From: an uncultured bacterium
GTDB taxonomy: Bacteria > Patescibacteriota > Patescibacteriia > Patescibacteriales > UBA12465
Direction: 5' to 3'
Length of the DNA: 64,000 bases
Assembly (NCBI GenBank): GCA_903945435.1
Contig: CAJAVM010000026.1
Span: forward strand, 8,311-72,310
How positions within the stretch are numbered: position 1 is the stretch's first letter; the number at the start of each line of letters is the position of its first letter. The position numbers and the translations under genes were made by a program. Shown here piece by piece: positions 2,982-34,606 of this stretch. The notes beneath the pieces are model-generated. The model made no database searches. It saw only the letters and a list, made by a program, of their open reading frames with translations, and had not been told where the DNA came from.

Positions 2982-3449
2982 TTATCTTGAGAAGTGAGCG
3001 AAAGCTTTATTAGCCTCAGCCATCTTATGAACAGCTTCTCTCTTCTTAACAGCAGTTCCTTCGCCATTAGAAGCATCTAGAATCTCAGTAGCAAGCTTTT
3101 CAGCAGTAGAACGACCCTTACGGTCATTAGCAGCCTTGATAATCCAGTTACAGCCTAAGAAATATCTTCTTTCACCACGAACCTGGAAAGGAACCTGATA
3201 GTTAGCACCACCGACTCTTTTACCTCTAACTTCAACAAGTGGAGAAACTTTCTTGATTGCCTTGTTAAAAATATGACGTGGATCTTGCTTAGTCTTATCT
3301 TTTAAAATATCAAAAGAGCGGTAAACGATACTTTCGGCTACACTCTTCTTTCCTCTTTCCATGACGTAATTAATAAATTTAGCGATATTCTTATCGTTAT
3401 ATTTAGAATCACCTTCGATTGTTCTCTTTGGAGCTGGTTTTCCTCTCAT
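2982..3449 (-). CDS. rpsG: 30S ribosomal protein S7
   Basis: 155-aa ORF with the S7 core KRVGGANYQVPFQVRGERR. It sits between rpsL and fusA. Confidence 0.97.
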   Translation of the reverse strand: MRGKPAPKRTIEGDSKYNDKNIAKFINYVMERGKKSVAESIVYRSFDILKDKTKQDPRHIFNKAIKKVSPLVEVRGKRVGGANYQVPFQVRGERRYFLGCNWIIKAANDRKGRSTAEKLATEILDASNGEGTAVKKREAVHKMAEANKAFAHFSR

Positions 3450-3529
3450 ATTTGTATGGCCGCGAACTTTTAGCAGCTATCTAAAATCGCGTCTTATTTT
3501 AACTTATTTATTAAAATGATTTATTTAAA

Positions 3530-3955
3530 TTATTTAGCAGCCTTGGGTTTCTTAGCGCCATAAGAACTGCGGCTCTTACGTCTAGCCTCAACACCAGAAG
3601 CATCGTATACACCACGAACAACTTTATAGCGAACACCAGGAAGATCTTTAGTTTTTCCACCCTTTACTAAAACGATGGAATGCTCTTGTAAGTTATGACC
3701 CATACCTGGGATATAAGCAGTTACTTCCATTCCGTTAGATAAACGAACACGGCAAATTTTACGCAACGCTGAGTTAGGTTTTTTGGGAGTAGTAGTAGTC
3801 ACCTTTAAACAAACGCCTTGCTTAAATGGAGCGCCTTTTGCAGTTTCTTTCTTTTTGCGGTGCAAAGAATCAAGACTAAGATGAAGAGCGATTGCGTTCT
3901 TGCGGACCTTTGTTTTTTGTCTTCCCTGCTTAACCAATTGATTTATAGTTGGCAT
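3530..3955 (-). CDS. rpsL: 30S ribosomal protein S12
   Basis: 141-aa ORF with [20 protein letters not shown] and KDLPGVRY motifs. It carries an extra ~17-aa segment ([21 protein letters not shown]) relative to the E. coli protein as I recall it. Confidence 0.97.
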
Positions 3956-4073
3956 AATTTTCAGTTATGGTCCGCCTTCTAGACGGATGCCTGGCGAACT
4001 TTGCTTATTACTAAATTTTAAATATTAAAATAATCCTGGATATTCAGGACGTGTGATTTTTTTATACTAATTC

Positions 4074-4102
4074 AATTTAACAAAATATAAAACATAAGTC
4101 AA
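4074..4102 (-). promoter_or_regulatory. Candidate sigma70-type promoter of rpsL operon
   Basis: Minus strand TTGACT (4102..4097), a 17-nt spacer, then TGtTAAATT (extended -10, hexamer 4079..4074). This leaves a ~110-nt leader to the rpsL ATG. Confidence 0.5.
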
Positions 4103-4173
4103 GAAGGATTAATGCAAATTTAGTCTATTTATGGATGTGCTAAACCACCCTCTTAACGTCACGGTTTTTCATG

Positions 4174-4202
4174 TTGACATAAATATATATTTATGATATT
4201 AT
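4174..4202 (+). promoter_or_regulatory. Candidate promoter of small lipoprotein gene
   Basis: TTGACA (4174..4179), a 17-nt spacer, then TGaTATTAT (extended -10, hexamer 4197..4202). Confidence 0.5.
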
Positions 4203-4258
4203 GAATACAAAAAAATCGTACGTTTAAAAAACTATATAAACAAAAAAAATCATTAACA

Positions 4259-4435
4259 ATGAAAACACCAATTAAAATTTCTCAATTAAAATTTGTATGG
4301 ATTCTTATTAAAATTGGAATAATCGTCGCTCTTTTAGCAGCAATAATGTCTTGCACAAAGGAAAAGGAATACGACATTCCAACTCCGGTTGAAAAAGTAA
4401 AGGTCTTTGTTTCTACTTCCTCTTCTCAAAATTGA
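4259..4435 (+). CDS. Small putative lipoprotein (58 aa), below the ORF-track cutoff
   Basis: ATG 4259 to TGA 4433..4435 encodes MKTPIKISQLKFVWILIKIGIIVALLAAIMSCTKEKEYDIPTPVEKVKVFVSTSSSQN. It has a basic n-region, a hydrophobic core and a lipobox-like AIMS|C. It is flanked by its own promoter and terminator. Confidence 0.5.
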   Translation: MKTPIKISQLKFVWILIKIGIIVALLAAIMSCTKEKEYDIPTPVEKVKVFVSTSSSQN

Positions 4436-4458
4436 ATTTGCCGTGCAATAATCAAAAG

Positions 4459-4492
4459 AGACCCGATTCTGCCAAGATTCGGGTTTTATTAT
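4459..4492 (+). terminator. Rho-independent terminator
   Basis: ACCCGAUUCU-GCCA-AGAUUCGGGU forms a 10-bp stem with one mismatch, followed by UUUUAUUAUU. Confidence 0.7.
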
Positions 4493-4520
4493 TGACAAAA
4501 GTAAATATTTGTGATATAAT
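4493..4520 (+). promoter_or_regulatory. Candidate promoter of membrane/coiled-coil gene
   Basis: TTGACA (4493..4498), a 16-nt spacer, then TGaTATAAT (extended -10, hexamer 4515..4520). Confidence 0.6.
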
Positions 4521-4617
4521 ATCGTCATAGTGCGCTAAGCGATTGGCACTCAAAAGCCGTACAAGGCTATGCTCCATTACAGGAGCTAAAAAAATCGGTT
4601 CTTTAAAAATTAATGTT

Positions 4618-5826
4618 ATGAGTAATTTAAAAGAAAAAATCCTAAATGGATTTATGAATGTGACTTTTATTGGGCTCCCTATCGCCCTAGTGTTAATCTT
4701 CGGAGCAAAATTTTCGCTCTGGCTGAATCTTTTGACGCTAATCTGCGTTATGTTCTTATCGGCCGCTTTCGCCATGATTGGAGATGAGTATGAAAGTCCA
4801 AAAAGAATTATGCTAGCCTTAATTGGTGCTTCTGTCGCTGCTAATATCAAAGTCCTGGTCTATCCCGGACACACAGCAGCAATTATTCTAACAACGATCC
4901 TAATTATCTCCACCTTTGACCTCATTGACCGAGGTCAAATCATTTGGTTGGAATTTACCAGACGTTCAAGATTGCGTTTCTTGGGAAAATTTATTATCCT
5001 AATAACTTTTCTCGGCAATATTGGTTTAATTGTTGCTAATTTCGGAAGCCAAGCGATTTGGATTCCAATAACAACAGCTTTACTACTGCTAACTCTGCTG
5101 TTTAACCACGATGCGTTCCTGCAAAACGATTCCTCGGAAAAAGAAAAAACATTCTTCATTTCCGCAGGAGCATTAATTCTCACCGGCGCAATTAGCACCA
5201 TCGTTCAATTTTGGACAACAGAACTTTTCTGGGGAATAAAACTCTGGCAACTGTTAGCCGGATTAGTAATTCTAATTATCATTATTGCGACAGTAATCTT
5301 TATCTGGATAATTAGACAAAACAGAATTGAACGACTTGAAAATCAAGAGAAAGAACGCGTTGAGCGAGAAGAACAACGGAAGACGGAGGCCGAAAAAAAA
5401 GAAAAAAAAGAAGAAGCGCTAGCTAAAAGACAAGCTAAGGTTGATACAATCATGGCTAAAAATTTAGAAGACTGGGTAGCTGATGATTTCGTTATCATCC
5501 ACGATCTAGATGCACAGACAGCCACAAAGGCTTTCTTGATGAATTCAAGTATTGACGGCGAATACATCGCCAACCTGATTACTGTTTCTATTTATAAGCA
5601 ACAGATTGTTTGGGGACACGGCTTAAGCACCTTCCTGCAAATATTTGAGCTTATTGCTCAAAAAAGTTTTTCAGACAAAGAATTAGCTCGAGTAATCACT
5701 ATTACTCTAGCTTTGAGCAAAAGAGTCGCCGATTTAAAGAGAGATGGTGATGAGGTTTACAAAGGAGAAAAAGAACTCCTAAACATGCTTACGCGAATTG
5801 AAGAATTCGCAAATAAAAAAGATTAG
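4618..5826 (+). CDS. Hypothetical polytopic membrane protein with charged coiled-coil segment and soluble C-terminal domain
   Basis: The track frame opens at TTG 4543, and the first in-frame ATG is 4618 (MSNLKEKILNG). Several hydrophobic segments are followed by RIERLENQEKERVEREEQRKTEAEKKEKKEEALAKRQAK and a ~130-aa C-terminal domain. No family recognised. Confidence 0.7.
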   Translation: MSNLKEKILNGFMNVTFIGLPIALVLIFGAKFSLWLNLLTLICVMFLSAAFAMIGDEYESPKRIMLALIGASVAANIKVLVYPGHTAAIILTTILIISTFDLIDRGQIIWLEFTRRSRLRFLGKFIILITFLGNIGLIVANFGSQAIWIPITTALLLLTLLFNHDAFLQNDSSEKEKTFFISAGALILTGAISTIVQFWTTELFWGIKLWQLLAGLVILIIIIATVIFIWIIRQNRIERLENQEKERVEREEQRKTEAEKKEKKEEALAKRQAKVDTIMAKNLEDWVADDFVIIHDLDAQTATKAFLMNSSIDGEYIANLITVSIYKQQIVWGHGLSTFLQIFELIAQKSFSDKELARVITITLALSKRVADLKRDGDEVYKGEKELLNMLTRIEEFANKKD

Positions 5827-5853
5827 CAATAAAACAAACAAGCTCACGCACAC

Positions 5854-5892
5854 AAAAAGACCCGAGTCTAAACAGCCCGGGTCTCTTTTTAT
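5854..5892. terminator. Bidirectional terminator between convergent genes
   Basis: AGACCCG (5858..5864) pairs with CGGGUCU (5878..5884). An A-run lies upstream and a T-run downstream. Confidence 0.6.
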
Positions 5893-5925
5893 TTAAAATA
5901 TATTTTAATTTTCAAGAACAACTTA

Positions 5926-6540
5926 CTATCCCGCTATCAACTTAAAAAGAAAATTAACTGGACCGCTGATTACCTGGCCAAATAACATTACTACTAAGAT
6001 TACTATCACAAATCCAAATCTTTCCATACTTAAATATCTCTCACGCAAATGGGCCGGTAAAAAAGTCGCCAATATCTTAGAACCATCAAGCGGCGGTAAA
6101 GGCAAAAGATTAAAGACGGCTAACAATAAATTTATATAAATAATCATTCCCAACAAACCAGAAAATGTTAAACTAAAAAATGGAATAAATTTTAATATCA
6201 AACCAAACACAACCGCAATCACTAAATTACCTAATGGGCCCGCGAAAGCAACTTTAGCTTCCCCATACTTTTTGTCAGTCAAATTATTTGGATTATATGG
6301 AACCGGTTTTGCCCAAGCAATTAAAAAAGGAGTTCCTGAAACCACCATCATTAGCGGTAAGAAAAAAGACCCAAACCATTCAAGGTGAGCAAGTGGATTT
6401 ATAGTTAATCTACCGGCATCTTTAGCGGTATCATCGCCTAAACGATGAGCCATAAAACCATGCAAGTATTCATGCACAACGGCCGAAAAGATTAACACTA
6501 TAATTTGAAATATTTGTATCATATGGAAATATTGTAACAT
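5926..6540 (-). CDS. Site-2 protease family zinc metalloprotease (peptidase M50)
   Basis: 204-aa multi-pass membrane ORF with HEYLHGF (HExxH) and the downstream NLLPLPPLDGSK motif typical of M50. Confidence 0.8.
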   Translation of the reverse strand: MLQYFHMIQIFQIIVLIFSAVVHEYLHGFMAHRLGDDTAKDAGRLTINPLAHLEWFGSFFLPLMMVVSGTPFLIAWAKPVPYNPNNLTDKKYGEAKVAFAGPLGNLVIAVVFGLILKFIPFFSLTFSGLLGMIIYINLLLAVFNLLPLPPLDGSKILATFLPAHLRERYLSMERFGFVIVILVVMLFGQVISGPVNFLFKLIAG

Positions 6541-6602
6541 AACTTGATTAATTTTAAAAATGCTGTTAGAATAAAACCATTAAAATAAGCAAATAAACCA
6601 AT

Positions 6603-6875
6603 ATGGCAAAAAAGTGTGATTTATGCGGACGTAGTTCAACAAAAGGGGCTAGTCGTTCTCATTCTAAAATTAAAACCTTAAAGAGACAGAATATCAACTT
6701 ACAAAGTAAGGTTATTGAAGGTGTTAAGGCTAAAGTTTGTACTTCTTGTATGAGAACTATGGAAAAGCCTAAAAGAGTTAAAACTCCTAGAAAACCGGCC
6801 CTAAAGGTAGGTGAATCAGCAACCATCAAAAAAACTGGAAAAAAAGTTGTTAAAGTAGCTAAAGCAAAAAAATAA
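6603..6875 (+). CDS. rpmB: 50S ribosomal protein L28 (4-Cys zinc form, Lys-rich C-terminal tail)
   Basis: MAKKCDLCGRSSTKGASRSHSKIKTLKRQNINLQ matches the L28 core. A second CxxC (CTSC) is present, and the tail KKTGKKVVKVAKAKK is lysine-rich. Confidence 0.9.
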   Translation: MAKKCDLCGRSSTKGASRSHSKIKTLKRQNINLQSKVIEGVKAKVCTSCMRTMEKPKRVKTPRKPALKVGESATIKKTGKKVVKVAKAKK

Positions 6876-6896
6876 TCTTCTCAAATTTTTAAACAT

Positions 6897-6926
6897 AAAA
6901 ACTCGCTAACGGCGAGTTTTTTGTTT
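6897..6926 (+). terminator. Rho-independent terminator of rpmB (overlaps comEC 3' end)
   Basis: AAAAACUCGC-UAACG-GCGAGUUUUUU. The last comEC codons (QKQKTRR) are encoded on the opposite strand of this hairpin. Confidence 0.7.
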
Positions 6927-8252
6927 TTGAAATAACCAAACTAAAATAATAAGTAAAATATAATAAACCGTCGCATCTAGATTTCCGAAATTATTTATTT
7001 CTATTGCCGCCCAATTTGGTTTTGCTAATAATCTTGCGGCTACAAAAATAAACTTTAGCATTAAGTAGGCGGGAAAAAATAACCACACTCCTAAACTCGG
7101 AAAAATCGCAGCGGGAATAAGCGGGATAATAAGAGCCGCTAATAAAAACGGAAATATCCAAATCACAATTGGGTTAGCAATAAATGAAATAATGGAAAAT
7201 TGGTGAAAGTTAATTAACATAATCGGCGTTACCGCTAACTGACAAGCGATAGTTAAGCTAAATATATCCCAAAGCGCAAGCCAAAAAGTTCGCCAACCAG
7301 CATGAAGTTTATTTTTTATTTTACTTCTTAAAGACTCAAAACAAGGATAAACATAAATGATTCCGCCTACCGCCGCAAAAGAAAGCTGAAAACCAATATC
7401 ATCTCTAAGTAGACGTGGATTAATTACAAGCATCAAGGCCGCCGAGAATACTAAAGCTTTAACTATTGTTGCTAAACGACCATAATATGAAGCTAAAAAG
7501 ACTAGCCCTCCCATCACCGCGGAACGTACTGCTGACGCGCTCAAGCCGGTCATTATTGGGTAAATGAAAAGAAACATAAAAATAATTTGCAAAGCGCGCT
7601 GACGTTTAAATCCTAAAAACAACATTAAGCCTAAAATCATGGCGCTCAAAATTGTAATATGAGAGCCAGAAATTGCAATTAAATGACTTAAACCAGTCCG
7701 AGAAAAAGCTAGCCCATCTTCATCACTAACTGTACGACGATAACCTAGGAGCAAAGCATCGGCTAAGCCAGCCTCCGGCTCGGGCAATGATTTATCAAGA
7801 ATTAATTTTATTTTCCATTTTAGTTTTAAGAGGGCTAAATAAATTTCTTGCTGATTAGAAAGAGTGCCTGATTCTTTATTAATTTTTGGATAATACATTA
7901 CTGAATAAATATCATATCGAGCTAAATAGCGTCCGTAATCAAAACCATTAAATTTTTCTGGCGTTTTTACTAAACCAGTAACTCTTAAATAATCGCCAAA
8001 GTTATACTCGGGATATAAAGCCGTCGTTACCAATACTCGACCATCAGCGCAAATTGTTAAGCGTCGACTTTTATAATCAATATCCGCTTCTTCGCAAACC
8101 TGACCAATAAATTCAATTTTTTGATTATTATATTTAGCTACTCCAACATTACTTTTCCCTACTAAAAAAGCCTCATCATCAAGGCTCCTACAAAATACAA
8201 ATCCGATAAATATTAAGTTTAAATAAAAAAATATCTTAGCTGGGGATAACAT
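6906..8252 (-). CDS. comEC: ComEC/Rec2 family DNA internalisation channel, core only
   Basis: 448-aa polytopic ORF with the competence-domain motif GLSHLIAISGSHITIL and an N-terminal OB-like region. No C-terminal metallo-beta-lactamase domain. Confidence 0.85.
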   Translation of the reverse strand: MLSPAKIFFYLNLIFIGFVFCRSLDDEAFLVGKSNVGVAKYNNQKIEFIGQVCEEADIDYKSRRLTICADGRVLVTTALYPEYNFGDYLRVTGLVKTPEKFNGFDYGRYLARYDIYSVMYYPKINKESGTLSNQQEIYLALLKLKWKIKLILDKSLPEPEAGLADALLLGYRRTVSDEDGLAFSRTGLSHLIAISGSHITILSAMILGLMLFLGFKRQRALQIIFMFLFIYPIMTGLSASAVRSAVMGGLVFLASYYGRLATIVKALVFSAALMLVINPRLLRDDIGFQLSFAAVGGIIYVYPCFESLRSKIKNKLHAGWRTFWLALWDIFSLTIACQLAVTPIMLINFHQFSIISFIANPIVIWIFPFLLAALIIPLIPAAIFPSLGVWLFFPAYLMLKFIFVAARLLAKPNWAAIEINNFGNLDATVYYILLIILVWLFQKQKTRR

Positions 8253-8278
8253 AAAAATGCCGTTAATTATAACGACAT
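8253..8278 (-). terminator. Hairpin plus T-run after prfB, abutting the comEC start
   Basis: Minus strand UGUCGUUA-UAAU-UAACGGCA (one mismatch) followed by UUUUU. It ends immediately upstream of the comEC ATG at 8252. Confidence 0.45.
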
Positions 8279-8309
8279 TTTACAAATAACCTAATAAACT
8301 AAGGATAAA

Positions 8310-9404
8310 CTATTTCTTTAAAAATCTTAAATAAGCTTCTATGAATTCTTCTAAATCACCATCTAAAACATTCTCAACATTAGAAGTTTCATATTCACTG
8401 CGATGATCTTTAACTAATTTATTTCCGTATAAAAAATATGATCTAATTTGTTTGCCCCATTCTGCTTTTTGAACATCACCTTTTAATTTTCTCTCCCGCA
8501 TTTCCCTTTCTTCTAGAAGGCGCTGATTTAATTTTGCCCGAAGTATTTGAAAAGCATTTTCTTTATTTTGATGTTGGGAGCGCTCTGTTTGGCAAGTAAC
8601 AGTTATATTAGTCGGTAAATGAACAATGCGCACGGCTGAATCCGTCGTATTGACACTCTGGCCACCAGGCCCGCTAGAGCGATAAACATCGATTCTAATA
8701 TCTTCATCTTTAATAACTACTCCGCCTTCATCAGGAATTTCTGGAATTACTTCGACTAAAGCAAATGAGGTTTGGCGTAAACCATCGGCATTAAAAGGTG
8801 AATTACGAAGCAAGCGATGAACACCGTTCTCGCTCTTTAAATACCCATAAGCATACGCACCAGTAATTCTTAAGTCTACACTCTTGAGACCAGCTTCATT
8901 ACCATAGCTCTTATCTAAAATCTCTGCTTTAAATCCTTTACGCTCACAAAAGCGAAAATACATTCTTTCGAGCATTTGCGCCCAATCCTGAGCATCAACC
9001 CCGCCCGTTCCCGCATGAATAGAAATAATTACATTACTTTTATCATACTTACCGGAGAATAAAGAAACAAACTCTAAGCGAGAAAATTCTTTTTCTAAAT
9101 CAACAGCTTTTTTTTCTAACTCCTGAATTAACTCTTCATTTGCTTCTTGCTGGACGAAAACTGCCATTTCTTCGGCTTCTTTAATTTCCTGTTCCATGTT
9201 AAGCCATTTAGCGGTTTCGGCTATTAACTCTTCCGCCTCTTGACCAATACTAACAGCGGCTTCTCTATTATCCCAAAAATTTGGCTCAGACATTTGTAGG
9301 CGTAAATCATTTGCTCTAACGAGTTTTTGGTCAATATTTAAAAGCACCTTTACTTTTAAAAGACGCGCTTGAAGTTCTTTTAATTTTTCAATAATATTTT
9401 CCAT
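8310..9404 (-). CDS. prfB: Peptide chain release factor 2
   Basis: GGQ motif (SGPGGQSVNTTDSAVRIVHLPT) and the RF2-specific SPF tripeptide (NSPFNADG). The track ORF opens at 9452, but ATG 9404 (MENIIEKLKEL) fits an RF2 N-terminus. The frame is uninterrupted, so no +1 frameshift is needed. Confidence 0.95.
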   Translation of the reverse strand: MENIIEKLKELQARLLKVKVLLNIDQKLVRANDLRLQMSEPNFWDNREAAVSIGQEAEELIAETAKWLNMEQEIKEAEEMAVFVQQEANEELIQELEKKAVDLEKEFSRLEFVSLFSGKYDKSNVIISIHAGTGGVDAQDWAQMLERMYFRFCERKGFKAEILDKSYGNEAGLKSVDLRITGAYAYGYLKSENGVHRLLRNSPFNADGLRQTSFALVEVIPEIPDEGGVVIKDEDIRIDVYRSSGPGGQSVNTTDSAVRIVHLPTNITVTCQTERSQHQNKENAFQILRAKLNQRLLEEREMRERKLKGDVQKAEWGKQIRSYFLYGNKLVKDHRSEYETSNVENVLDGDLEEFIEAYLRFLKK

Positions 9405-9440
9405 ATCTAGATTATAACAGACAAATAAGAAATAACTCAA

Positions 9441-9472
9441 ACAAAAAGCCATCCCGGAAGGATGACTTTTTT
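9441..9472 (-). terminator. Terminator after rpsI
   Basis: CAUCC-(5-nt loop)-GGAUG core extended by flanking A/U pairs, with T-runs on both strands. Confidence 0.6.
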
Positions 9473-9506
9473 ATGTTCAAATCTTTGTGTAAAAATTCTA
9501 TAAAGA

Positions 9507-10004
9507 TTAACGCTTGCTCCATTGAGGGGCTTTTCTAGCTTTTCTCAAACCTGGTTTCTTTCTTTCTACTTGTCTTGGATCACGAGTTAAGAAGCCATTA
9601 GCTTTCAAAGCATCTTTGGTTGCTGGATCAAGAGCAAAAATAGCACGACTGATACCTAATTTAACAGCATCAACTTGGCCAAATTTACCACCTCCATGAA
9701 CAATAATAGAGAAATTGTAATCACGATGATGACCAGTAACTTTCAATGGTTGAACAATAATATTTAAACCTTCACCTGGAAAATATTCGGCCGCTCTTTT
9801 ACCATTAATCATGATAACGCCTTTTCCGCCCTCATATAAACGAACCTGGGCAGAAGCTTGTTTGCGACGTCCAACAGCCTTAATATATTTACCAGTGAAC
9901 TCAGCGATTTCATTCTTAGCCCATTCTTTATCATCTTCAATGATATCTTCAGTAGCGGCCTCGAATTCATCTTCTCTGACTTCTTTTATCTTTTTGTCTG
10001 CCAT
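9507..10004 (-). CDS. rpsI: 30S ribosomal protein S9 (N-terminally extended)
   Basis: C-terminal RKKPGLRKARKAPQWSKR S9 signature. An acidic N-terminal extension of ~35 aa is present. Confidence 0.95.
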   Translation of the reverse strand: MADKKIKEVREDEFEAATEDIIEDDKEWAKNEIAEFTGKYIKAVGRRKQASAQVRLYEGGKGVIMINGKRAAEYFPGEGLNIIVQPLKVTGHHRDYNFSIIVHGGGKFGQVDAVKLGISRAIFALDPATKDALKANGFLTRDPRQVERKKPGLRKARKAPQWSKR

Positions 10005-10005
10005 A

Positions 10006-10362
10006 TTATTTTATAATTAATCTTTTGAGCATACCGACACGTAATTTAGTCGGAGGAAGCATCTCTTTAACAGCTCTTTGTAAAACTTCTCCAGGATTAA
10101 GGGCATAAATAGAAGACATCTTCTTTGTTTTTAAACCGCCGATATATCCTGAAAAATGATAATATTCTTTCTGGTCAAACTTTTTGCCAGTGAATTTCAT
10201 TTTTGAAATATTTTTAACTTCAACAATATCTCCCAAATCCATATGAGGTTGATATTCTGGTTTATTTTTACCATGTAAGATGTTTGCAATCTTAGTAGCT
10301 AAACGGCCGACAGTTTGGTCTTCAGCATCAATCTGATGCAACTTTCTTTCAATATTTTTCAT
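10006..10362 (-). CDS. rplM: 50S ribosomal protein L13
   Basis: MKNIERKLHQIDAEDQTVGRLATKIANILHGKNKPEYQPH matches the L13 N-terminus. It lies directly upstream of rpsI. Confidence 0.95.
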   Translation of the reverse strand: MKNIERKLHQIDAEDQTVGRLATKIANILHGKNKPEYQPHMDLGDIVEVKNISKMKFTGKKFDQKEYYHFSGYIGGLKTKKMSSIYALNPGEVLQRAVKEMLPPTKLRVGMLKRLIIK

Positions 10363-10366
10363 ATTT

Positions 10367-10717
10367 TTATACTAATTCAATTTGAACCATTTCAGCACCA
10401 TCGCCCTGTCTGGTCCCTAACTTAACGACACGAGTATATCCTCCTGGACGTTCTTTATAGCGAACACCTAAAACTTCGATCGTTTTTTTAATGGCATTCT
10501 TTTGTAGTAAAACCTTGATTAAACCACGACGGGCAGCTAAATCACCAGCTTTAGAAGCAGTAATCATTCTTTCTACAAGTGGGCGAACTGCTTGAGCCTT
10601 AGCTTTAGTAGTTGTAACCTTCTCATATAAAAGAATACTGGATGCCATATTTCTTAACATCAGCTCGCGTGGACCTTTCTCTCGGTCTAAAATTTTATTT
10701 TTATTTCTGTGACGCAT
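10367..10717 (-). CDS. rplQ: 50S ribosomal protein L17
   Basis: 116-aa ORF with MRHRNKNKILDREKGPRELMLRNMASS and GGYTRVVKLGTRQGDGAEM. It follows rpoA. Confidence 0.95.
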   Translation of the reverse strand: MRHRNKNKILDREKGPRELMLRNMASSILLYEKVTTTKAKAQAVRPLVERMITASKAGDLAARRGLIKVLLQKNAIKKTIEVLGVRYKERPGGYTRVVKLGTRQGDGAEMVQIELV

Positions 10718-10767
10718 AAACTCTTATCGATCAGCTTTCCGCTTTCGGCGAAATAGCGTGCAAATTA

Positions 10768-11598
10768 TTATTTCTTGGATTTTTTAGCTTTTTCTTTCTT
10801 CTCTTTTTTTGGCTCTTCAATTTCTTCAGTTTCTGCTTCAACTACTTCTACATTTTCTACTACTTCTTCAGCATCATTTTTAGCTGCTTCCTCCGCCATT
10901 TCTTTACCAATGTTTTCTGGTAACAAAGCGTTGAATTGTTCAACTAAAATTTTAACTGCTTCATTGAAGGCTTCTTCAGGGCTAACAGTTCCATCAGTCT
11001 TAACATCAAGAATAAGCTTGTCCCAGTTGGTCATTTTACCAACACGAGCATTGTCTACTTTAATGCTAACAAGAGTAACTGGAGAAAAAATAGAATCGAT
11101 TTCAATGAAACCAATTTCCTTATTTTCTTTCTTACTACCCTCAGCCATCTTATAGCCACGGCCACCTTTTACTAATATTTCGGCATCGAGGCTGCCGGCT
11201 TCATCAGTAATATTGGCTAAAACCAATTCAGGATTTTTTATTTCAACTTGGCTATTTTTTGTAATCTCGGAAGCAGTAACAATTTTCTTACCCTTTACTT
11301 TTAATTCTAGACGAACTTCTTCTTCAGTAAAAACTTTAAATCTCAACTGTTTCAAATTTAGAATTAATTCCAAAACATCCTCCTTAATATGAGGTAAGGC
11401 CATAAATTCATGACTTGCGCCTTTGATTTTTACACCAATAACCGCAGCTCCTGGTAAAGATGATAATAAGACACGGCGTAAAGAATTACCTAGTGTCATA
11501 CCATAACCCGGAAACAAAGGTTCGATGGTGATAACCCCTTCGTTGGAGTTCCCAACCATTTTAAAATCAATTTTTTTAGGGTTAGCAATGTTTTGCAT
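10768..11598 (-). CDS. rpoA: DNA-directed RNA polymerase alpha subunit, N-terminal domain only
   Basis: 276 aa with the NTD motif GYGMTLGNSLRRVLLSSLPGAAV and the NTD end ...SPEEAFNEAVKILVEQFNALL. A 46-aa acidic/Lys-rich tail follows, and no HhH alpha-CTD is present. Confidence 0.93.
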   Translation of the reverse strand: MQNIANPKKIDFKMVGNSNEGVITIEPLFPGYGMTLGNSLRRVLLSSLPGAAVIGVKIKGASHEFMALPHIKEDVLELILNLKQLRFKVFTEEEVRLELKVKGKKIVTASEITKNSQVEIKNPELVLANITDEAGSLDAEILVKGGRGYKMAEGSKKENKEIGFIEIDSIFSPVTLVSIKVDNARVGKMTNWDKLILDVKTDGTVSPEEAFNEAVKILVEQFNALLPENIGKEMAEEAAKNDAEEVVENVEVVEAETEEIEEPKKEKKEKAKKSKK

Positions 11599-11607
11599 AT
11601 TATTTTT

Positions 11608-12237
11608 TTATTTTGAATAATACTCAATGATCATTTGAACGTTGATGCTCTGAGGAAGATCTAAATCCTTAGGCTCATGTAAAATTTTACCAGCCTTATC
11701 AGTAGCGTTGAAATCTAACCAGCTAGGTCTTTCGGCCTTAGCTAATCTATCATTAACATTTCTGAAATAAGGACTATTTTGACTACTTTTTCTAATTTTA
11801 ATGACTTGACCTAATTTTACAGAGAATGAAGCAATATCAGTCTTTCTATCGTTAACAGTAAAATGGCCATGATTTACTAATTGTCTAGCTTGAGCGCGAG
11901 AAGCAGCAAAACCTAAGCGGAAAACAACATTATCTAAACGAGATTCCAATAATCTTAAGAAGTTCTTTCCAGCGTCACCTTGCTTTTTAGCAGCTTTTTC
12001 AAAAGTTAAACGGAATTGCTTTTCAGCTAAACCATAATACTTTTTCGCCTTTTGTTTCTCAGCTAACTGAGTACCGAAGTCGCTTAAGCGCTTGCGTCCT
12101 TTTTGACCATGAACACCAGGACCATAATTACGCTTAACCATAGCACATTTAGGACCTAAGCATCTTTCGCCTTTTAGAAACAATTTTTCACCGATACGAC
12201 GACATTGTTTACATTTATTATCAATATTTCTTCCCAT
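11608..12237 (-). CDS. rpsD: 30S ribosomal protein S4
   Basis: Zinc-finger N-terminus CKQCRRIGEKLFLKGERCLGPKCA and S4 domain RLDNVVFRLGFAASRAQARQLVNHGH. Confidence 0.96.
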   Translation of the reverse strand: MGRNIDNKCKQCRRIGEKLFLKGERCLGPKCAMVKRNYGPGVHGQKGRKRLSDFGTQLAEKQKAKKYYGLAEKQFRLTFEKAAKKQGDAGKNFLRLLESRLDNVVFRLGFAASRAQARQLVNHGHFTVNDRKTDIASFSVKLGQVIKIRKSSQNSPYFRNVNDRLAKAERPSWLDFNATDKAGKILHEPKDLDLPQSINVQMIIEYYSK

Positions 12238-12254
12238 ATTATATTTTGATTATT

Positions 12255-12836
12255 TTAAACTCTTCTTGGTTTCTTTGGGCGACAACCATTATGAGGAACT
12301 GGAGTTGTATCTTTAATTGAAGATACATCAAGACCATTAGCGTTTAAAGCACGGATAGCCGCTTCACGACCAGTTCCGACACCAGAAACAAATACACTAA
12401 CTTCTTGCAAACCATATTCTTCTTTAGCTTTCTGAGCAGCAATCTTGGTAATAATTTGAGCAGCATAAGGAGTAGCTTTTTTTGCCCCCTTAAACCCAGC
12501 TAAACCAGCACTAGCCCAAGAAATTACGTCACCATTAGTATCGGTAAGCGTAATCATTGTATTATTATAAGTCGCTTGAACATAAGCACGGCCAACTTTT
12601 ACAACTCTGGCAGTCTTTTTCTTCTTCTTTTTTACCAGCTTTTTCTTGGCTCTTGCAGCTTTATTCTTTTCAAGCTTTTGCTTGATTTCTTCAGGCAGTT
12701 CTTCATCAGATGAATCAAAAGAGAAAGCAGCCATTTCATCGCGCTCTTCTTTTTCTTCGCTCTTAGCTGGTTTTAATTCAGCTTCTAGAGCAACATCTTC
12801 TTTTTTTACTGCGTCTTTTTTTACTTCTTCAGACAT
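12255..12836 (-). CDS. rpsK: 30S ribosomal protein S11 (about 70-aa E/K-rich N-terminal extension)
   Basis: The C-terminal ~120 aa is S11 ([22 protein letters not shown] ... [18 protein letters not shown]). The N-terminus is low-complexity E/K-rich. Confidence 0.95.
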
Positions 12837-12859
12837 ATTTTAAGCTCTTAGAATTATAA

Positions 12860-13255
12860 TTAGGTCTTCTGCAAACCGGCCTTGCTCTTGCCGCTAACTG
12901 CAGTTACACGTTTATTACCTCTTACGGTACGGCTATTAGTCTTAGTTCTCTGGCCTCTTACCGGTAGATGTTTAGTGTGTCGTAGACCACGGTAGCAACC
13001 AATTTCACGTAAACGTTTGATATTACTTTGAACTTCACGACGCAAATCACCTTCAACCGTAAATTTCTTTTCGACGATTTCTCTTAAAAGATTAACATCT
13101 GCTTCTTTCAAATCTTTAACTCTAATATTCTTATCAACACTTGCGGTTTCTAAAATCTTGTTAGATCTAGTTTTACCGATTCCGTAGATATAAGTTAAAG
13201 CAATCTCTATTCTTTTTTCATTCGGGATATTTACCCCTGCGATTCTTACTGCCAT
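12860..13255 (-). CDS. rpsM: 30S ribosomal protein S13
   Basis: [35 protein letters not shown] matches the S13 N-terminus. Confidence 0.96.
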
Positions 13256-13272
13256 ATTTTAGATATTAAAAA

Positions 13273-13386
13273 TTACCCTTGTCTTTGTTTGTGTTTAGGG
13301 TTCTTACAGATAACGTGGACCCGACCTTTGCGTCGCACGACTTTACAATCTTTACAAATTTTCTTAGCACTAGCTCTAACTTTCAT
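13273..13386 (-). CDS. rpmJ: 50S ribosomal protein L36 (below the ORF-track cutoff)
   Basis: ATG 13386..13384 to TAA 13275..13273 encodes [37 protein letters not shown] (37 aa, CxxC...C....H zinc form). It sits between infA and rpsM. Confidence 0.9.
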
Positions 13387-13486
13387 ATGGTATTTAATAC
13401 TTTCTATGAATTAAACTGCGAGGTTTATTTTATACAAAGCAATTCTCAATCTTACTAAATAATACTTGGCTTCATTTTTTAAACAA

Positions 13487-13744
13487 TTACATACGATAGG
13501 TAATTCGGCCCTTGGTTAAATCATAAGGGCTAATTTGTAGTTTTACTTTATCTCCAGGAAGTAGTCGAATACGATTCATTCGCATCTTTCCCGATAAATG
13601 AGCTAAAACTTCATGACCGTTTTCTAGAGCAACTCTAAAACTAGCGGCCGGCATTAATTCCAACACTTCGCCCTGCATTTCGATAAAATCTTTGGCGTTT
13701 AAATTGCTGGAAGTTTCGTTGTTGTTTCCCATGTCTTTTGACAT
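13487..13744 (-). CDS. infA: Translation initiation factor IF-1
   Basis: S1-like core [64 protein letters not shown]. The start is ambiguous: ATG 13744 or 13732, while the track ORF opens at TTG 13771. Confidence 0.92.
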
Positions 13745-13836
13745 TAACACAAAAAAATTTGATAAAGACAAGTTTGCCTTATCAAAGTTTTTTAAAAATA
13801 TTTTCGCTTATTTAATATAATATTCTTAATAAAAAC

Positions 13837-13865
13837 ATTATAGATATAAGTTTGAAAGTTGTCAA
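13837..13865 (-). promoter_or_regulatory. Consensus sigma70-type promoter upstream of infA operon
   Basis: Minus strand TTGACA (13865..13860), a 17-nt spacer, then TATAAT (13842..13837). Both hexamers are perfect. Confidence 0.65.
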
Positions 13866-13889
13866 TAGTTAAGCTGCTTTATACCAGGA

Positions 13890-15722
13890 TTATTCCAGAA
13901 TGGCCTTTATCCTTCTTACCCCGGAGCTAGATGACTCCTCCTTTTGTATCTTAAATTTACCCAAGATTCCCGTATTGTTAACATGGGGGCCACCACATAT
14001 CTCCTGAGAAAAAGCATTATTTGTATCCGGGCTACCATCCGCTAATAATTTACTGGCGGTATAAACCTTAACTCTTTCTCCATATTTAGAGTCAAAAACA
14101 CCCATCGCTCCTCTATTCTTAGCCTCTTCTAATGATAATTCCTCACAAATAACAGGAAAATCCGCAGCAATCGCTCCATTTACTAAATCCTCCGTTTCTT
14201 TTATTTGTTCGGCAGTCATTTTTTCAGAATAAGAAAAATCGAAGCGTAATCTTTCTGCTGTAATGTTACTTCCCTTTTGAGTTACGCCGTCTCCCAGAAC
14301 TTTACGTAAAGCGGCTAAAAGTAAATGAGCAGCAGTATGCAATTTTGTAGTTTCTTCACTAGCATCAGCCAACCCACCCTTAAACTTACCGGCTGAAGCA
14401 GTCCTGGATAAATCTTGATGCTTCTTAAATTCTATTTCAAAAGCCGTAACGTCAACTTCTTTTCCATATTCCTTAGCCATTTCAATTGTCATTTCCAAGG
14501 GGTATCCATAAGATTGAAATAAATTGAAAGCTACTTCTCCTGGAATAAGTCCAGCAGACTCACTGCCTGTTATTGCCCATTTCATAAATTCTTTTTCTCC
14601 CTGAACTAAAGTACGACTAAACTTTTCTTCTTCTTTATCTAAAGTTTCTAAAATTAAATTTTTATTTTTTTCTAATTCACTATAAATATTTTGATAAATG
14701 AAAATTGCTTCTTGAGCGATTTGTTTAGTCCAAAGTACTTCCTCTATCCCCAATTGGCGACCATAACGAATAGCACGACGAATTAAACGTCTTAACACAT
14801 AACCCTGGTCTGTATTAGAAGGAGTAATTCCTCTATCATCGCCAATAATAAAAGTAGCGGCTTTAATATGATCAGCAGTAATACGCATCGCTTTATCAAC
14901 CTCAGGGCTTTCTCCGTATTTTTTATGACTCAAAGCTTCAATCTTGTTTATCAATCCCCGGAAAAGTTCTGTTTGATAATTATCACTTTTACCATTAATA
15001 ATAGCTAAAACTCTTTCTAGCCCCAACCCTGTATCCACATTCGGTTTCTTCAGTAATTCAAAAACGCCTTCAGCATTCTTGTTATACTGCATAAAAACAT
15101 TATTCCAAATCTCTACCCATAAATCATTATCGTCATTAAAGCTCTCTGGAACTTTATCTACATCACCAACCCAATAAAAAATTTCTGTATCCGGGCCGCA
15201 AGGACCGGTCGTTCCAGCCGGACCCCACCAATTATTTTTTTTCGGTAATTTAGCAATTCTAGCTTCTGGAATATTATTTTGAGAAAAAATTTCTTGCCAA
15301 ATTTTATATGCCTCTTCATCATAAAGAGCGTCTTCGTCTCCTTGAAATACTGAAACTGCTAAACGATTTTTATTAAGATTAAGCCACTCAGAAGAAGTTA
15401 GAAACTCCCAGCTAAAATTGATTGAATCCTTTTTAAAATAATCTCCCAGAGACCAATTCCCCATCATCTCAAAAAAAGTATGATGAGTAGCATCGCCAAC
15501 CTCATCAATATCGCCCGTTCTAATACATTTCTGAGAATTAGTTAAACGATTCCCAGCCGGATGTTTCTCTCCTAAAAGATATGGAACTAGCGGATGCATA
15601 CCGGCGGTCGTGAATAAAACTGTCGGGTCATTTTCAGGAATTAAAGAAGCGCTAGAAATCATGGCATGATTTTTGCTCTTGAAAAAATCTAAATATTTTT
15701 GGCGCAATTCATTAGCGGTCAT
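13890..15722 (-). CDS. alaS: Alanine--tRNA ligase, short form without C-Ala domain
   Basis: 610 aa with the class II core (FTTAGMHPLVPYLLG, FFEMMGNWSLGDYFK) and editing-domain motifs HTAAHLL and CGGPHV. The protein stops right after the editing domain. Confidence 0.95.
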   Translation of the reverse strand: MTANELRQKYLDFFKSKNHAMISSASLIPENDPTVLFTTAGMHPLVPYLLGEKHPAGNRLTNSQKCIRTGDIDEVGDATHHTFFEMMGNWSLGDYFKKDSINFSWEFLTSSEWLNLNKNRLAVSVFQGDEDALYDEEAYKIWQEIFSQNNIPEARIAKLPKKNNWWGPAGTTGPCGPDTEIFYWVGDVDKVPESFNDDNDLWVEIWNNVFMQYNKNAEGVFELLKKPNVDTGLGLERVLAIINGKSDNYQTELFRGLINKIEALSHKKYGESPEVDKAMRITADHIKAATFIIGDDRGITPSNTDQGYVLRRLIRRAIRYGRQLGIEEVLWTKQIAQEAIFIYQNIYSELEKNKNLILETLDKEEEKFSRTLVQGEKEFMKWAITGSESAGLIPGEVAFNLFQSYGYPLEMTIEMAKEYGKEVDVTAFEIEFKKHQDLSRTASAGKFKGGLADASEETTKLHTAAHLLLAALRKVLGDGVTQKGSNITAERLRFDFSYSEKMTAEQIKETEDLVNGAIAADFPVICEELSLEEAKNRGAMGVFDSKYGERVKVYTASKLLADGSPDTNNAFSQEICGGPHVNNTGILGKFKIQKEESSSSGVRRIKAILE

Positions 15723-15777
15723 ATATTTACAAACTTATTTTTTATTGATTTTTTTATAATAGCTTTTTGTAGCTTCT

Positions 15778-16806
15778 CTATATTATATTAACTTCTTCGC
15801 TTAAATCAAGGCCAAATTTCTTTTTAACAGCCAATTTCACTTTAGCTACTAAATTTAAAACTTGTTTAGAACTAGCACCGCCTTCATTCACTAAGATTAA
15901 GGCTTGTTTTTCATACATTCTCACTGGACCAAACTTCTTACCTTTCAAGCCCGCTTGCTCTATAAGCCAACCGGCCGGAATCTTAAACTTAGAGCGATTA
16001 ATCTGAAAAGATGGCATGTCTGGATATTTTACAAACAAATTTTTAAATGTTTGCAAATTAACTTCCGGATTTTTAAAGAAAGAACCGGCATTAGGCAAGA
16101 TAAAAGGGTTTGGTAATTTACTATTTCTAATTTCCTCAATCGTTTTAATAACATCATAAGCCGTAGGCTTTTTTATCCCCTTCAATTTTAAGGCCTCCCC
16201 AATAGAGCCATAGCCTAATTTAAAATCTGGCTTACGTAACAAGGCAACCGTAACTGAATAAATAAAATATCTGCCTTTTAATTTATTTTTAAAAATACTA
16301 TCTCGATAACCAAATCGACAATCATTGGCTGAAAATATTTTCTCATTTCCAGTCTTTAAATCAATCGCGCTTAAATGATGAAAACAATCCTTTAATTCAA
16401 CGCCATAAGCTCCAATATTTTGCACAGGAGCGGCACCAACTGTACCATAAATTAAAAATAGATTTTCGAGACCATAAAATTTATTTTCTACCGTATAAGA
16501 AACAAATTTAGACCATATTTCACCAGACGAAGCTTCTACTAAAACTAAACTTTTATTTTTTTCTACAACCTTAATACCCTGCATCTCATTTTTAATAACT
16601 AGCCCTTTAATTGTTTTAGAAAGAAGGACATTGGACCCACCTCCTAAGATAAATATCAGCTGTTTTTTTGCTCGAGCAAATGCAATCGCCTCTAAAAGTT
16701 CATTTTTATTTTTTACAATCGCAAAATAATCAGCCGTTGAGCTAACCTTTAAAGTTGTATATTTAGTTAAAGAATGTTTTTTTTCTATTTTTAACATATG
16801 AATCAT
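15778..16806 (-). CDS. murB: UDP-N-acetylenolpyruvoylglucosamine reductase
   Basis: 342-aa ORF with the FAD-binding N-terminal pattern (TTLKVSSTADYF...ILGGGSNVLL) and a MurB C-terminal domain. It lies in a dcw context. Confidence 0.9.
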   Translation of the reverse strand: MIHMLKIEKKHSLTKYTTLKVSSTADYFAIVKNKNELLEAIAFARAKKQLIFILGGGSNVLLSKTIKGLVIKNEMQGIKVVEKNKSLVLVEASSGEIWSKFVSYTVENKFYGLENLFLIYGTVGAAPVQNIGAYGVELKDCFHHLSAIDLKTGNEKIFSANDCRFGYRDSIFKNKLKGRYFIYSVTVALLRKPDFKLGYGSIGEALKLKGIKKPTAYDVIKTIEEIRNSKLPNPFILPNAGSFFKNPEVNLQTFKNLFVKYPDMPSFQINRSKFKIPAGWLIEQAGLKGKKFGPVRMYEKQALILVNEGGASSKQVLNLVAKVKLAVKKKFGLDLSEEVNII

Positions 16807-33105: not shown

Positions 33106-34113
33106 TTATTTTGTCGCTAAGATACTTCTCTTATATGAATCTAAGTTATCTAATGCTATACCAGTTCCCTTGGCCACACAAAGCATGGCGTCGTCAGCAA
33201 CATAAGCCGGAACCCCAGTAGTACGAGCTATGAGTTGGTCCATATTGCGTAACAGCGAGCTCCCTCCAGTCAAAACTATCCCCTTATCCATGATATCAGC
33301 TGATAATTCTGGGGGAGTTTTTTGTAATACTTTTTTAGCAGCCGACATGATTGCTTCAAGCTCATGTTGAATTGCTTCGGTCACGTCATCACTAGAAACA
33401 GTAATGCTTCGTGGTAATCCAGTAACTATATCACGACCACGAACTTCCATATGCAATTTATCTTCCATATAGAGCGCTGAGCCAATATTGATTTTTATTT
33501 CTTCAGCCGTTCTTTCGCCAATTGCTAAATTATATTTTTTTCTAACATATTCTAAAACTGCCGCATCAAATTTATTCCCTCCAACTCTTACTGAGGTAGA
33601 GGCGACAACACCGCCTAAAGATATAACCGCCATTTCCGCAGTTCCTCCGCCAATATCAATTACCATGTGACCAGTTGCTGAACCAATTGGGATATCCGCT
33701 CCAATTGCTGCAGCGACTGGCTCTTTAATAATATAAGCTGCTTTAGCGCCAGCAGCGATAGTTGCTTCAATAACAGCTCGTCTTTCAGTAGAAGATATGC
33801 CAGCAGGAACAGCAACCATAACCTCAGGCCTAAACAAGCGTATTCCACCCAAAGTTTTATTTATAAAGTATCTAATCATCGCTTCAGTTGCACGATAATC
33901 AGCAATAACCCCATCTTTTAGGGGTTTAACCGCCATAATTGTATCAGGTGTTCGGCCCAACATATCCTTTGCCTCATTACCAACAGCTAGAATTTTTTTA
34001 TCGGCAATAGAAACCGCGACCACACTTGGTTCATTAACAACAATCCCGCGCCTTGGCAGATAAACTAAAGTATAGGTTGTTCCTAAATCGATACCGATTT
34101 GTTTTATAAACAT
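33106..34113 (-). CDS. MreB-family actin-like protein (second paralogue)
   Basis: 335 aa with IGIDLGTTYTLVY, DIGGGTAEMAVISLGG and GIVLTGGSSLLRN. By eye, about half of the positions are identical to the mreBCD-linked copy. Confidence 0.9.
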   Translation of the reverse strand: MFIKQIGIDLGTTYTLVYLPRRGIVVNEPSVVAVSIADKKILAVGNEAKDMLGRTPDTIMAVKPLKDGVIADYRATEAMIRYFINKTLGGIRLFRPEVMVAVPAGISSTERRAVIEATIAAGAKAAYIIKEPVAAAIGADIPIGSATGHMVIDIGGGTAEMAVISLGGVVASTSVRVGGNKFDAAVLEYVRKKYNLAIGERTAEEIKINIGSALYMEDKLHMEVRGRDIVTGLPRSITVSSDDVTEAIQHELEAIMSAAKKVLQKTPPELSADIMDKGIVLTGGSSLLRNMDQLIARTTGVPAYVADDAMLCVAKGTGIALDNLDSYKRSILATK

Positions 34114-34171: not shown

Positions 34172-34606
34172 TTAGTCAATTGACTGCTCATCATCGTCAT
34201 CATCCTCATCTCTTGATTTTTCTTGATTACTAATTATCTTAATTACCTTCTCGGCAAATTGAAAAGTATCAAAATCATCTTTAAAGAAAACATAATCTGC
34301 CCCCATTTCCAAACTGCGATGGCGACTATCCTCATCACTTAAGTCAGTAAAAATAAAAATTTCTTTATCACTTAACTCATCGTCTGATTTAATTTTTTTA
34401 ACAATTTCAAAGCCATCAATCTTCGGTAAAATAATATCTAAAACGATATAGTCTGGCTGAAACTCTCTTAAATTATCAAGTAATTCTTCTGCGTCTTCTT
34501 CCGCCTCGCTAACTTCTACCTCTAAACCGGCCGCAGAGAATTGAGCCTCTAACCCGTAGAGAATATTAGCATCGTCTTCGATAATGAATATTTTTTTGTC
34601 AGTCAT
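34172..34606 (-). CDS. Stand-alone response-regulator receiver domain with poly-acidic tail
   Basis: 144 aa with IFIIEDD, the phospho-acceptor context YIVLDIILPKIDG, IFIFTD and FFKDD. The tail is SRDEDDDDDEQSID, and there is no output domain. Confidence 0.85.
   Translation of the reverse strand: MTDKKIFIIEDDANILYGLEAQFSAAGLEVEVSEAEEDAEELLDNLREFQPDYIVLDIILPKIDGFEIVKKIKSDDELSDKEIFIFTDLSDEDSRHRSLEMGADYVFFKDDFDTFQFAEKVIKIISNQEKSRDEDDDDDEQSID

Follow-up and report, generated by a model that had tools for sequence, protein, structure and literature searches.

The RNA polymerase alpha subunit encoded in the 64,000-nucleotide stretch of patescibacterial DNA analysed here (the window) lacks the C-terminal domain (alpha-CTD), the part that contacts UP elements and class I activators. 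Its gene, rpoA, lies on the minus strand at 10768..11598, including the TAA stop, and specifies a protein of 276 residues whose CTD-less character is apparent from Pfam, NCBIfam and PDB alignments. The same architecture recurs in part of the Patescibacteria, and beyond its N-terminal domain (alpha-NTD) the protein continues as a charged tail that ends in a short, conserved basic motif. On balance, we lean towards the reading that the loss of the domain is real and clade-wide and that the tethered basic peptide, or the AT-hook found in its place in related lineages, provides a minimal contact to upstream DNA, a DNA binding that we infer from the sequences.

The alpha-NTD, the assembly platform for beta and beta', is complete. 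Residues 1-228 (10915..11598, minus strand) comprise the dimerisation and insert domains, as delimited with Pfam, AlphaFold2 and Foldseek: the Rpb3/Rpb11-type dimerisation domain PF01193 is matched over its entire model (1-74 of 74, residues 26-222, E 2.5e-22), as is the RpoA insert domain PF01000 (1-119 of 119, residues 56-172, E 2.6e-27), and the helix-hairpin-helix family of the alpha-CTD, PF03118, has no match in the 276 residues even at E<=10. The protein passes the bacterial RpoA equivalog model TIGR02027 with 250.7 bits against a cut-off of 227.8 (model positions 2-242 of 298) and scores under the cut-offs of the PRK05182 sub-models; its alignments to the NCBIfam rpoA models stop at about position 242-257 of 298-338, covering the NTD and the linker, and those to solved alpha subunits (PDB chains) include only residues 5-227/248. 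AlphaFold2, run on an alignment of 55 sequences, predicts the NTD with pLDDT values of at least 93 over most of residues ~10-220 (one 10-residue block is at 77). Beyond the NTD come a single low-confidence helix (228-248) and coil, pLDDT drops to 48-57 by the end, and no folded domain appears after residue ~248. In a Foldseek search against solved RNA polymerase structures, the model aligned over 218-230 NTD columns only, with an rmsd of ~2 Å to alpha-NTDs. The preliminary description of this locus had thus correctly diagnosed a 276-residue RpoA without alpha-CTD, and its by-eye alignment to the end of the E. coli alpha-NTD was reproduced by tblastn with the E. coli and B. subtilis sequences; the charged low-complexity tail that it placed before the stop is also there, but measures 50 residues past ...FNALL, not 46. 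Given the intact NTD, we would expect an alpha dimer to assemble with beta and beta' into an active RNA polymerase.

Compared with canonical RpoA (329 residues in E. coli, 314 in B. subtilis), the window protein shares an orthologous, TIGR02027-passing NTD with 42-46% identity, the position in the operon and a flexible segment after the NTD, but carries an acidic spacer and a 14-residue basic motif instead of the ~65-85-residue helix-hairpin-helix CTD (PF03118). Archaeal RpoD and eukaryotic Rpb3-type subunits are likewise alpha-NTD homologues that naturally have no alpha-CTD. The window protein, however, is clearly of the bacterial RpoA type, as its TIGR02027 score of 250.7 bits attests, and it reaches only 26.1 bits with the archaeal RpoD model NF001988, for which the cut-off is 153.

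The gene is embedded in the canonical array infA-rpmJ-rpsM-rpsK-rpsD-rpoA-rplQ-rplM-rpsI and thereby occupies the alpha-operon position (rpsM-rpsK-rpsD-rpoA-rplQ). Upstream of it on the minus strand lie infA (13487..13771), the first gene of the operon, whose true start is probably internal to the listed TTG reading frame, rpmJ (13273-13386), rpsM (12860-13255), rpsK (12255-12836) and rpsD (11608-12237). The rpoA frame closes with tandem in-frame stops, TAA TAA (10765..10770, minus strand; gene stop at 10768-10770, second stop at 10765-10767), after which a spacer of 50 nucleotides (10718..10767, minus strand), too short for a CTD of ~65 residues, leads to rplQ (L17; 10367..10717, minus strand, start at 10717), the canonical gene after rpoA. 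To search for a CTD in the DNA, we built an HMM of this domain from 87 CTD-bearing homologues, which detects it in 76 of 80 GTDB loci. Applied with --max to all 1,098 six-frame segments of the 64-kb window, it found no CTD in RpoA or elsewhere (best E 0.3), and tblastn with the E. coli and B. subtilis CTDs returned noise only (best E 0.69); the earlier statement that the 50-nucleotide gap holds no alternative frame for the domain is borne out by this search, which detected nothing there in any frame. The best match of the HMM in the window is the helix-hairpin-helix of RuvA and was rejected as an alpha-CTD.

Four independent assemblies from different samples agree over the rpoA region at 100% DNA identity, and the same 276-residue protein was called on contigs of at least four samples or assemblies. 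Its best 120 homologues (71-100% identity, 266-295 aa, on contigs of up to 979 kb), named Patescibacteria, Candidatus Falkowbacteria and in one case Saccharimonadales, have the NTD Pfam families only, with no match to the CTD HMM in any of the 120. Nor is there a CTD in any of the best 120 homologues of a distant CTD-less relative, P0133 (48-100% identity to it), whose names include Komeilibacteria, Kerfeldbacteria, Veblenbacteria and Parcubacteria CG1_02_37_51. All 240 listed homologues are accordingly short (238-316 aa) and without CTD; because of this, and of the identical DNA in four assemblies, sequence comparison argues that the CTD-less rpoA is a genuine truncation, conserved across hundreds of independent assemblies.

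For a wider view, we took the best 150 matches from a HMMER scan of 1.84 billion 50%-identity representatives, of which 87 have a CTD and 63, some of them frameshifted junk, do not; long "CTD-less" representatives such as P0215, P0226 and P0257 are frameshifted junk of this kind from high-GC organisms and were excluded. A scan of GTDB species genomes, in which the matches listed are mostly non-CPR at <=50% identity and include at least 14 CPR loci, yielded CTD-less alphas in Veblenbacteria (L005), Patescibacteria H51 (L042), Parcubacteria SI034 (L063) and L040. Among the same matches listed, the CTD is kept in six Saccharibacteria loci, Microgenomates L018, Peribacteria L048, Parcubacteria GW2011_GWF1_45_5 (L015) and Patescibacteria C14-28 (L006), and it is also present in the NCBI "Patescibacteria" proteins P0130, P0134 and P0136. 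Since Saccharibacteria, Microgenomates, Peribacteria and some Parcubacteria retain the domain, these sequences indicate a clade-level loss that affects part of the Patescibacteria only; the named CTD-less lineages correspond largely to what we take to be GTDB class ABY1. A neighbour-joining tree of the NTDs, although poorly resolved, contains two clades that are purely CTD-less (21 and 10 tips) besides scattered tips; the 16 changes obtained with Fitch parsimony come from a tree too unresolved for counting independent losses.

The tail that follows the NTD consists of two parts. Residues 229-262 (10813..10914, minus strand) form an acidic spacer of 34 residues with 14 D/E against 2 K and a net charge of -12, predicted by AlphaFold2 to be a single helix and then disordered, and residues 263-276 (10771..10812, minus strand) form the conserved basic motif PKKEKKEKAKKSKK, with a net charge of +7. 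In 118 close homologues whose tails are 40 residues or longer, the spacer has a mean pairwise identity of only 0.22-0.25 and frequent indels, with a composition that is always acidic (mean net charge -12). In the last 14 residues of the same homologues, mean pairwise identity is 0.60 and mean net charge +6.4; the positions of the final KKxKK are K/R in 91-99%, and KKEKK itself is present in 98 of 120 tails. Five genomes for which DNA was available gave 0.11 non-synonymous differences per codon in the last 14 codons versus 0.10 in the NTD, which argues that the terminal motif is constrained as strongly as the folded domain; the spacer, with indels and an identity of 0.48, is not. Synonymous differences are also low in these 14 codons (0.14 versus 0.37 per codon), for which AAA codon bias or a constraint at the RNA or DNA level could be responsible rather than protein function. 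The tail had been described as low-complexity sequence; a charged stretch of about 50 residues it certainly is, but with a terminus constrained like the NTD it is no mere filler.

Whether the basic end accompanies the loss of the CTD was examined in a roughly independent set, the 50%-identity representatives together with the GTDB loci, with a basic cluster defined as at least six K/R in 12 residues. Such a cluster occurs in 34 of 43 CTD-less tails, in 31 of them inside the last 20 residues, compared with 8 of 157 CTD-bearing proteins outside the CTD and 1-2 of the 13 named CPR proteins with a CTD (Fisher p 1e-22 and 6e-6 to 6e-5, respectively, values that overstate independence because of kinship). 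About 9 of the 43 CTD-less clusters, roughly a fifth, lack a basic cluster, their tails being short or purely acidic, so that, as far as these sequences go, the basic end is not obligatory for a CTD-less alpha. The acidic part precedes the basic part in 170 of 182 tails. Among the 57 reading frames of the window, an acidic-plus-basic C-terminal tail was found in RpoA only; the other basic C-termini belong to ribosomal proteins, and S11, from the same operon, has a similar acidic/basic extension. Part of the tail signal could therefore be compositional, as A/T-rich genomes favour lysine-rich low complexity and S11 looks similar. A few CTD-bearing CPR proteins (P0134, L006) have lysine-rich linkers; the co-occurrence of such linkers with a CTD would fit a DNA-philic linker that preceded the loss of the domain.

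In sister lineages, the position of the basic motif is taken by an AT-hook. KKRGRPKK stands at the extreme C-terminus in the divergent 50% clusters P0122, P0132, P0133, P0141 and L005, near-variants of the core occur in P0219 and P0166, and each of the two large CTD-less clades in the NTD tree includes AT-hooks. In 78 of the 120 listed homologues of P0133 (48-100% identity), RGRP or [KR]GRP[KR] lies 3-8 residues before the C-terminus; degenerate versions, KKRGRK and KKGRTKK for example, are found in many of the rest. The Pfam AT_hook model (PF02178) matches exactly at the tip of P0133, P0141 and L005 with 11.9-13.1 bits against a gathering score of 17.4, a sub-threshold score being expected from a model of 13 residues. 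The window tail has a K/E-rich motif, PKKEKKEKAKKSKK, at the same position as KKRGRPKK of its Komeilibacteria-type relatives, and no GRP core with basic flanks. AT-hooks recognise A/T-rich DNA by insertion into its minor groove, and the alpha-CTD uses this groove and shares this base preference on UP elements.

As to the promoters, the alaS-infA intergenic region contains a perfect sigma70-type site (TTGACA-17-TATAAT, 12/12; 13837..13865, minus strand), which likely drives the operon containing rpoA, as judged from its placement, and a second intergenic site is equally perfect and has an extended -10 TG (TTGACA-17-TATAAT, 12/12; 4492-4520, plus strand). Two such sites compare with 0.0175 expected in 4.2 kb of non-coding DNA (P(>=2) ~1.5e-4). 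The preliminary description had reported several near-perfect promoters: the two perfect ones substantiate this, but promoter-like sites as a whole, 51 in 3000-16000 versus 39 +- 6.3 in shuffled sequences, are in modest excess only. It had further seen in them a promoter recognition independent of alpha-CTD contacts. In keeping with this, a perfect promoter does head the operon, and TTGACA is perfect at the alaS-infA promoter of all CTD-less loci; the CTD-bearing Saccharibacteria locus L031, however, has an equally perfect promoter (12/12) at the same position, and for this reason the link between perfect promoters and CTD loss is a conjecture. An A/T-rich, UP-like tract is absent upstream of the infA promoter of the window (AT content 0.59-0.61 versus 0.715 in non-coding DNA), and the -60..-37 region of the infA promoter in the AT-hook lineages is not A/T-rich either (0.30-0.65). 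Upstream A/T enrichment was not significant for the few promoters available, three strong intergenic ones in the window and six in 146 kb of CTD-less loci.

Based on the results above, we envisage an alpha subunit reduced to the NTD, which would dimerise and scaffold beta and beta', and a disordered tail of ~50 residues with two modules: an acidic spacer, apparently constrained in composition only, and a short basic tip, apparently under purifying selection, that is lysine-rich in the window protein and an AT-hook in sister lineages. Tethered by the spacer, the tip could touch (A/T-rich) DNA upstream of -35 electrostatically or in the minor groove, and such a contact would be a minimal stand-in for that of the alpha-CTD with UP elements and upstream DNA, comparable to the AT-hook of WhiB7. 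The acidic spacer may hold the tail extended by shielding itself and may damp non-specific binding. Canonical class I activation, in which an activator docks on the alpha-CTD, could not operate in such an enzyme, and sigma contacts would be the main basis of promoter strength, in agreement with the perfect -35/-10 promoter before the operon. Taken in full, as a swap, throughout a class-level clade, of the alpha-CTD for a minimal tethered peptide, an AT-hook or its lysine-rich derivative, that gives RNA polymerase its upstream-DNA contact, this scheme is put forward tentatively, at somewhat under even confidence.

Several other explanations have to be weighed against a replaced domain. An assembly or sequencing artefact, in which a frameshift or premature stop would have cut a normal rpoA, has next to no probability and is ruled out by the four identical assemblies and by the length and architecture kept in the 240 listed homologues; the tandem stops, the adjoining rplQ and the lack of CTD-coding DNA in any frame speak against it as well. 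It is also very improbable that a split gene or a fusion elsewhere in the genome supplies an alpha-CTD that works in trans. While the search covered 64 kb of a genome of probably ~1 Mb, no CTD emerged from the six-frame translation of this window, rplQ directly follows rpoA in all relatives, and an untethered CTD would lose its normal mode of action. The conserved motif at the end of the tail speaks for substitution and not for relocation, and a loss in Parcubacteria is already in the literature (PMC8321222).

More serious, yet in our view unlikely, is a purely reductive loss, in which a lineage poor in regulators simply discarded the CTD, sigma contacts alone remained and the tail is a functionless linker remnant subject to low-complexity drift. 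Small genomes, the hypervariable spacer, the CTD-less clusters with only acidic or very short tails and the occurrence of perfect consensus promoters with no UP-like tract seen would all agree with this, and there are precedents in Hodgkinia and Tremblaya and in Euglena plastids (PMC8321222). A mere remnant is, however, difficult to reconcile with 14 terminal residues constrained like the NTD next to a spacer that changes about five times faster, with a canonical AT-hook kept in 78 of 120 listed proteins over 48-100% identity, and with the strong association between basic tails and CTD loss. Similarly improbable, to our mind, is a tail that is functional in some way other than promoter-DNA contact: RNA or the ribosome could be its target (coupling), it could recruit lineage-specific factors or associate with the nucleoid, or it could mimic nucleic acid or serve as an auto-inhibitory polyampholyte, in the manner of region 1.1 of sigma70 or the acidic tail of B. 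subtilis delta. The conserved composition of the spacer, with its net charge of -12, the analogous extension of S11 in the same operon and the lack of a visible A/T-rich tract upstream of the conserved operon promoter would be compatible with such roles, but AT-hooks are established as specific minor-groove binders of A/T DNA, the motif ends a linker of a reach similar to that of the alpha-CTD tether, and no partner for another role is in evidence.

Loss of the alpha-CTD has been described for Hodgkinia and Tremblaya, and one sentence of the same 2021 paper extends it to Parcubacteria, in which it "is also present", and to microalgal chloroplasts (PMC8321222). The main text of the reference given there for Parcubacteria has no mention of RNA polymerase. 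As Falkowbacteria are filed under the Parcubacteria group in NCBI taxonomy, the remark very probably refers to the same CTD-less clade, so that the CTD-less RpoA of this clade is already noted once, in passing (PMC8321222). This sentence was all that a full-text literature search, outside which most subscription journals fall, found on the status of the alpha-CTD in Patescibacteria, and within the same scope it found no AT-hook or lysine tails of alpha; a 2025 preprint describes the alpha-CTD as "ubiquitously present across all Bacteria". What appears to be new is the clade-level distribution, together with a basic tip under selection and an AT-hook in the equivalent place. Like the alphas of Hodgkinia, Tremblaya and the Euglena chloroplast, the proteins described here keep the NTD and have lost the CTD in reduced genomes; unlike them, they belong to a large, diverse and environmentally abundant clade and have a conserved basic or AT-hook tip. 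A CTD-less enzyme is viable in principle, since B. subtilis with a CTD-less alpha grows, at a doubling time of 1.9 h versus 1.0 h (PMC4495994).

A short AT-hook peptide on the transcription machinery, as in WhiB7, offers a mechanistic model for the alpha tail, whose own contact with DNA we infer. The DNA contacted by the WhiB7 AT-hook is A/T-rich and lies upstream of -35. Contact of this AT-hook with promoter DNA has been reported in mycobacteria (PMC8786299). While WhiB7 is a separate Fe-S regulator on sigma region 4, the motif considered here is part of core alpha, is present in two copies per enzyme and would be constitutive; in the window protein, moreover, it is lysine-rich and has no RGRP core.

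The alpha-CTD, the docking site for UP elements and many activators, is generally regarded as a universal component of bacterial RNA polymerase. A large and abundant clade without it would need other ways to recognise and regulate its promoters, and the AT-hook or lysine-rich tip suggests a minimal substitute for a DNA-binding domain of 65-85 residues. The clade distribution, the selected basic tip and the AT-hook together make domain replacement a testable hypothesis. If it is true, canonical class I activation would be missing from these bacteria, and their alpha tail would represent a new, and the simplest known, answer to the function of UP elements. The loss of the domain affects promoter and regulon prediction in CPR genomes and also limits the choice of model organisms: because the cultivable Saccharibacteria retain the CTD (six loci among the GTDB matches listed), they are not representative of the CTD-less state. 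More generally, the clade bears on the limits to which the core transcription machinery can be pared down.

The N-terminal extension of ribosomal protein S11 (12255-12836, minus strand) and the C-terminal tail of RpoA in the window share a similar charge pattern, the extension of S11 comprising about 60 residues that are first acidic and then poly-lysine. At 193 aa, S11 of the window is longer than its counterparts in Komeilibacteria-type relatives that share this operon, which measure 133-137 aa. Ribosomal protein S9 (9507-10004, minus strand; 165 aa) likewise carries an N-terminal extension, of about 35 residues and acidic.

The rpoA-rplQ spacer (10718-10767) spans 50 nt in the window and in L090 and L091, with the conserved sequence gcggaaagctgatcg… common to all three, and is just 12 nt long in the two close relatives L088 and L089. 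Between rpsK and rpsD, the independent assembly L001 contains about 155 nt more (9190-9361 of L001) than either the window (approximately 12224-12278) or L002. Part of this extra DNA duplicates the flanking 55 nt, and the difference is due either to heterogeneity between strains or to a variant of the assembly.

Nearly all genes of the window lie on the minus strand, and GC skew is negative over its full length (1-64000); within these 64 kb, we found neither tRNA genes nor Rfam families at the gathering threshold. On the plus strand, the promoter at 4492-4520 matches TTGACA-17-TATAAT perfectly and has the TG of an extended -10 element; it is directly preceded by a terminator-like hairpin and followed after 23 nt by an ORF (4543-5826; 427 aa) for which a Pfam search returned no match. 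Another plus-strand promoter (4174-4202), with an 11/12 match and the TG, is located 300 nt upstream.

Among the annotated ORFs of at least 90 aa in the window, we found neither a sigma factor nor a DNA-binding regulator. A stand-alone response-regulator receiver domain (34172-34606), which ends in a poly-Asp tail (…RDEDDDDDEQSID), is encoded on the minus strand together with two MreB paralogues (33106-34113 and 38454-39494) and MreC (37616-38428). The same strand carries a single 390-aa ORF (58010-59182) with PurC (SAICAR synthetase) and PurE (AIR carboxylase) domains, an apparent PurC-PurE fusion, as well as a 1492-aa protein with PKD/Ig-like repeats (59478-63956), which is probably a large surface protein.

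Among the database homologues of RpoA, P0121 consists of an exact tandem duplication, which is likely an assembly artefact. The domains of P0144 follow the order NTD-CTD-NTD-CTD. P0123 (526 aa) is organized as NTD-NTD-CTD and combines two diverged alpha-NTDs on one chain; it is possible that this protein constitutes a single-chain alpha dimer.
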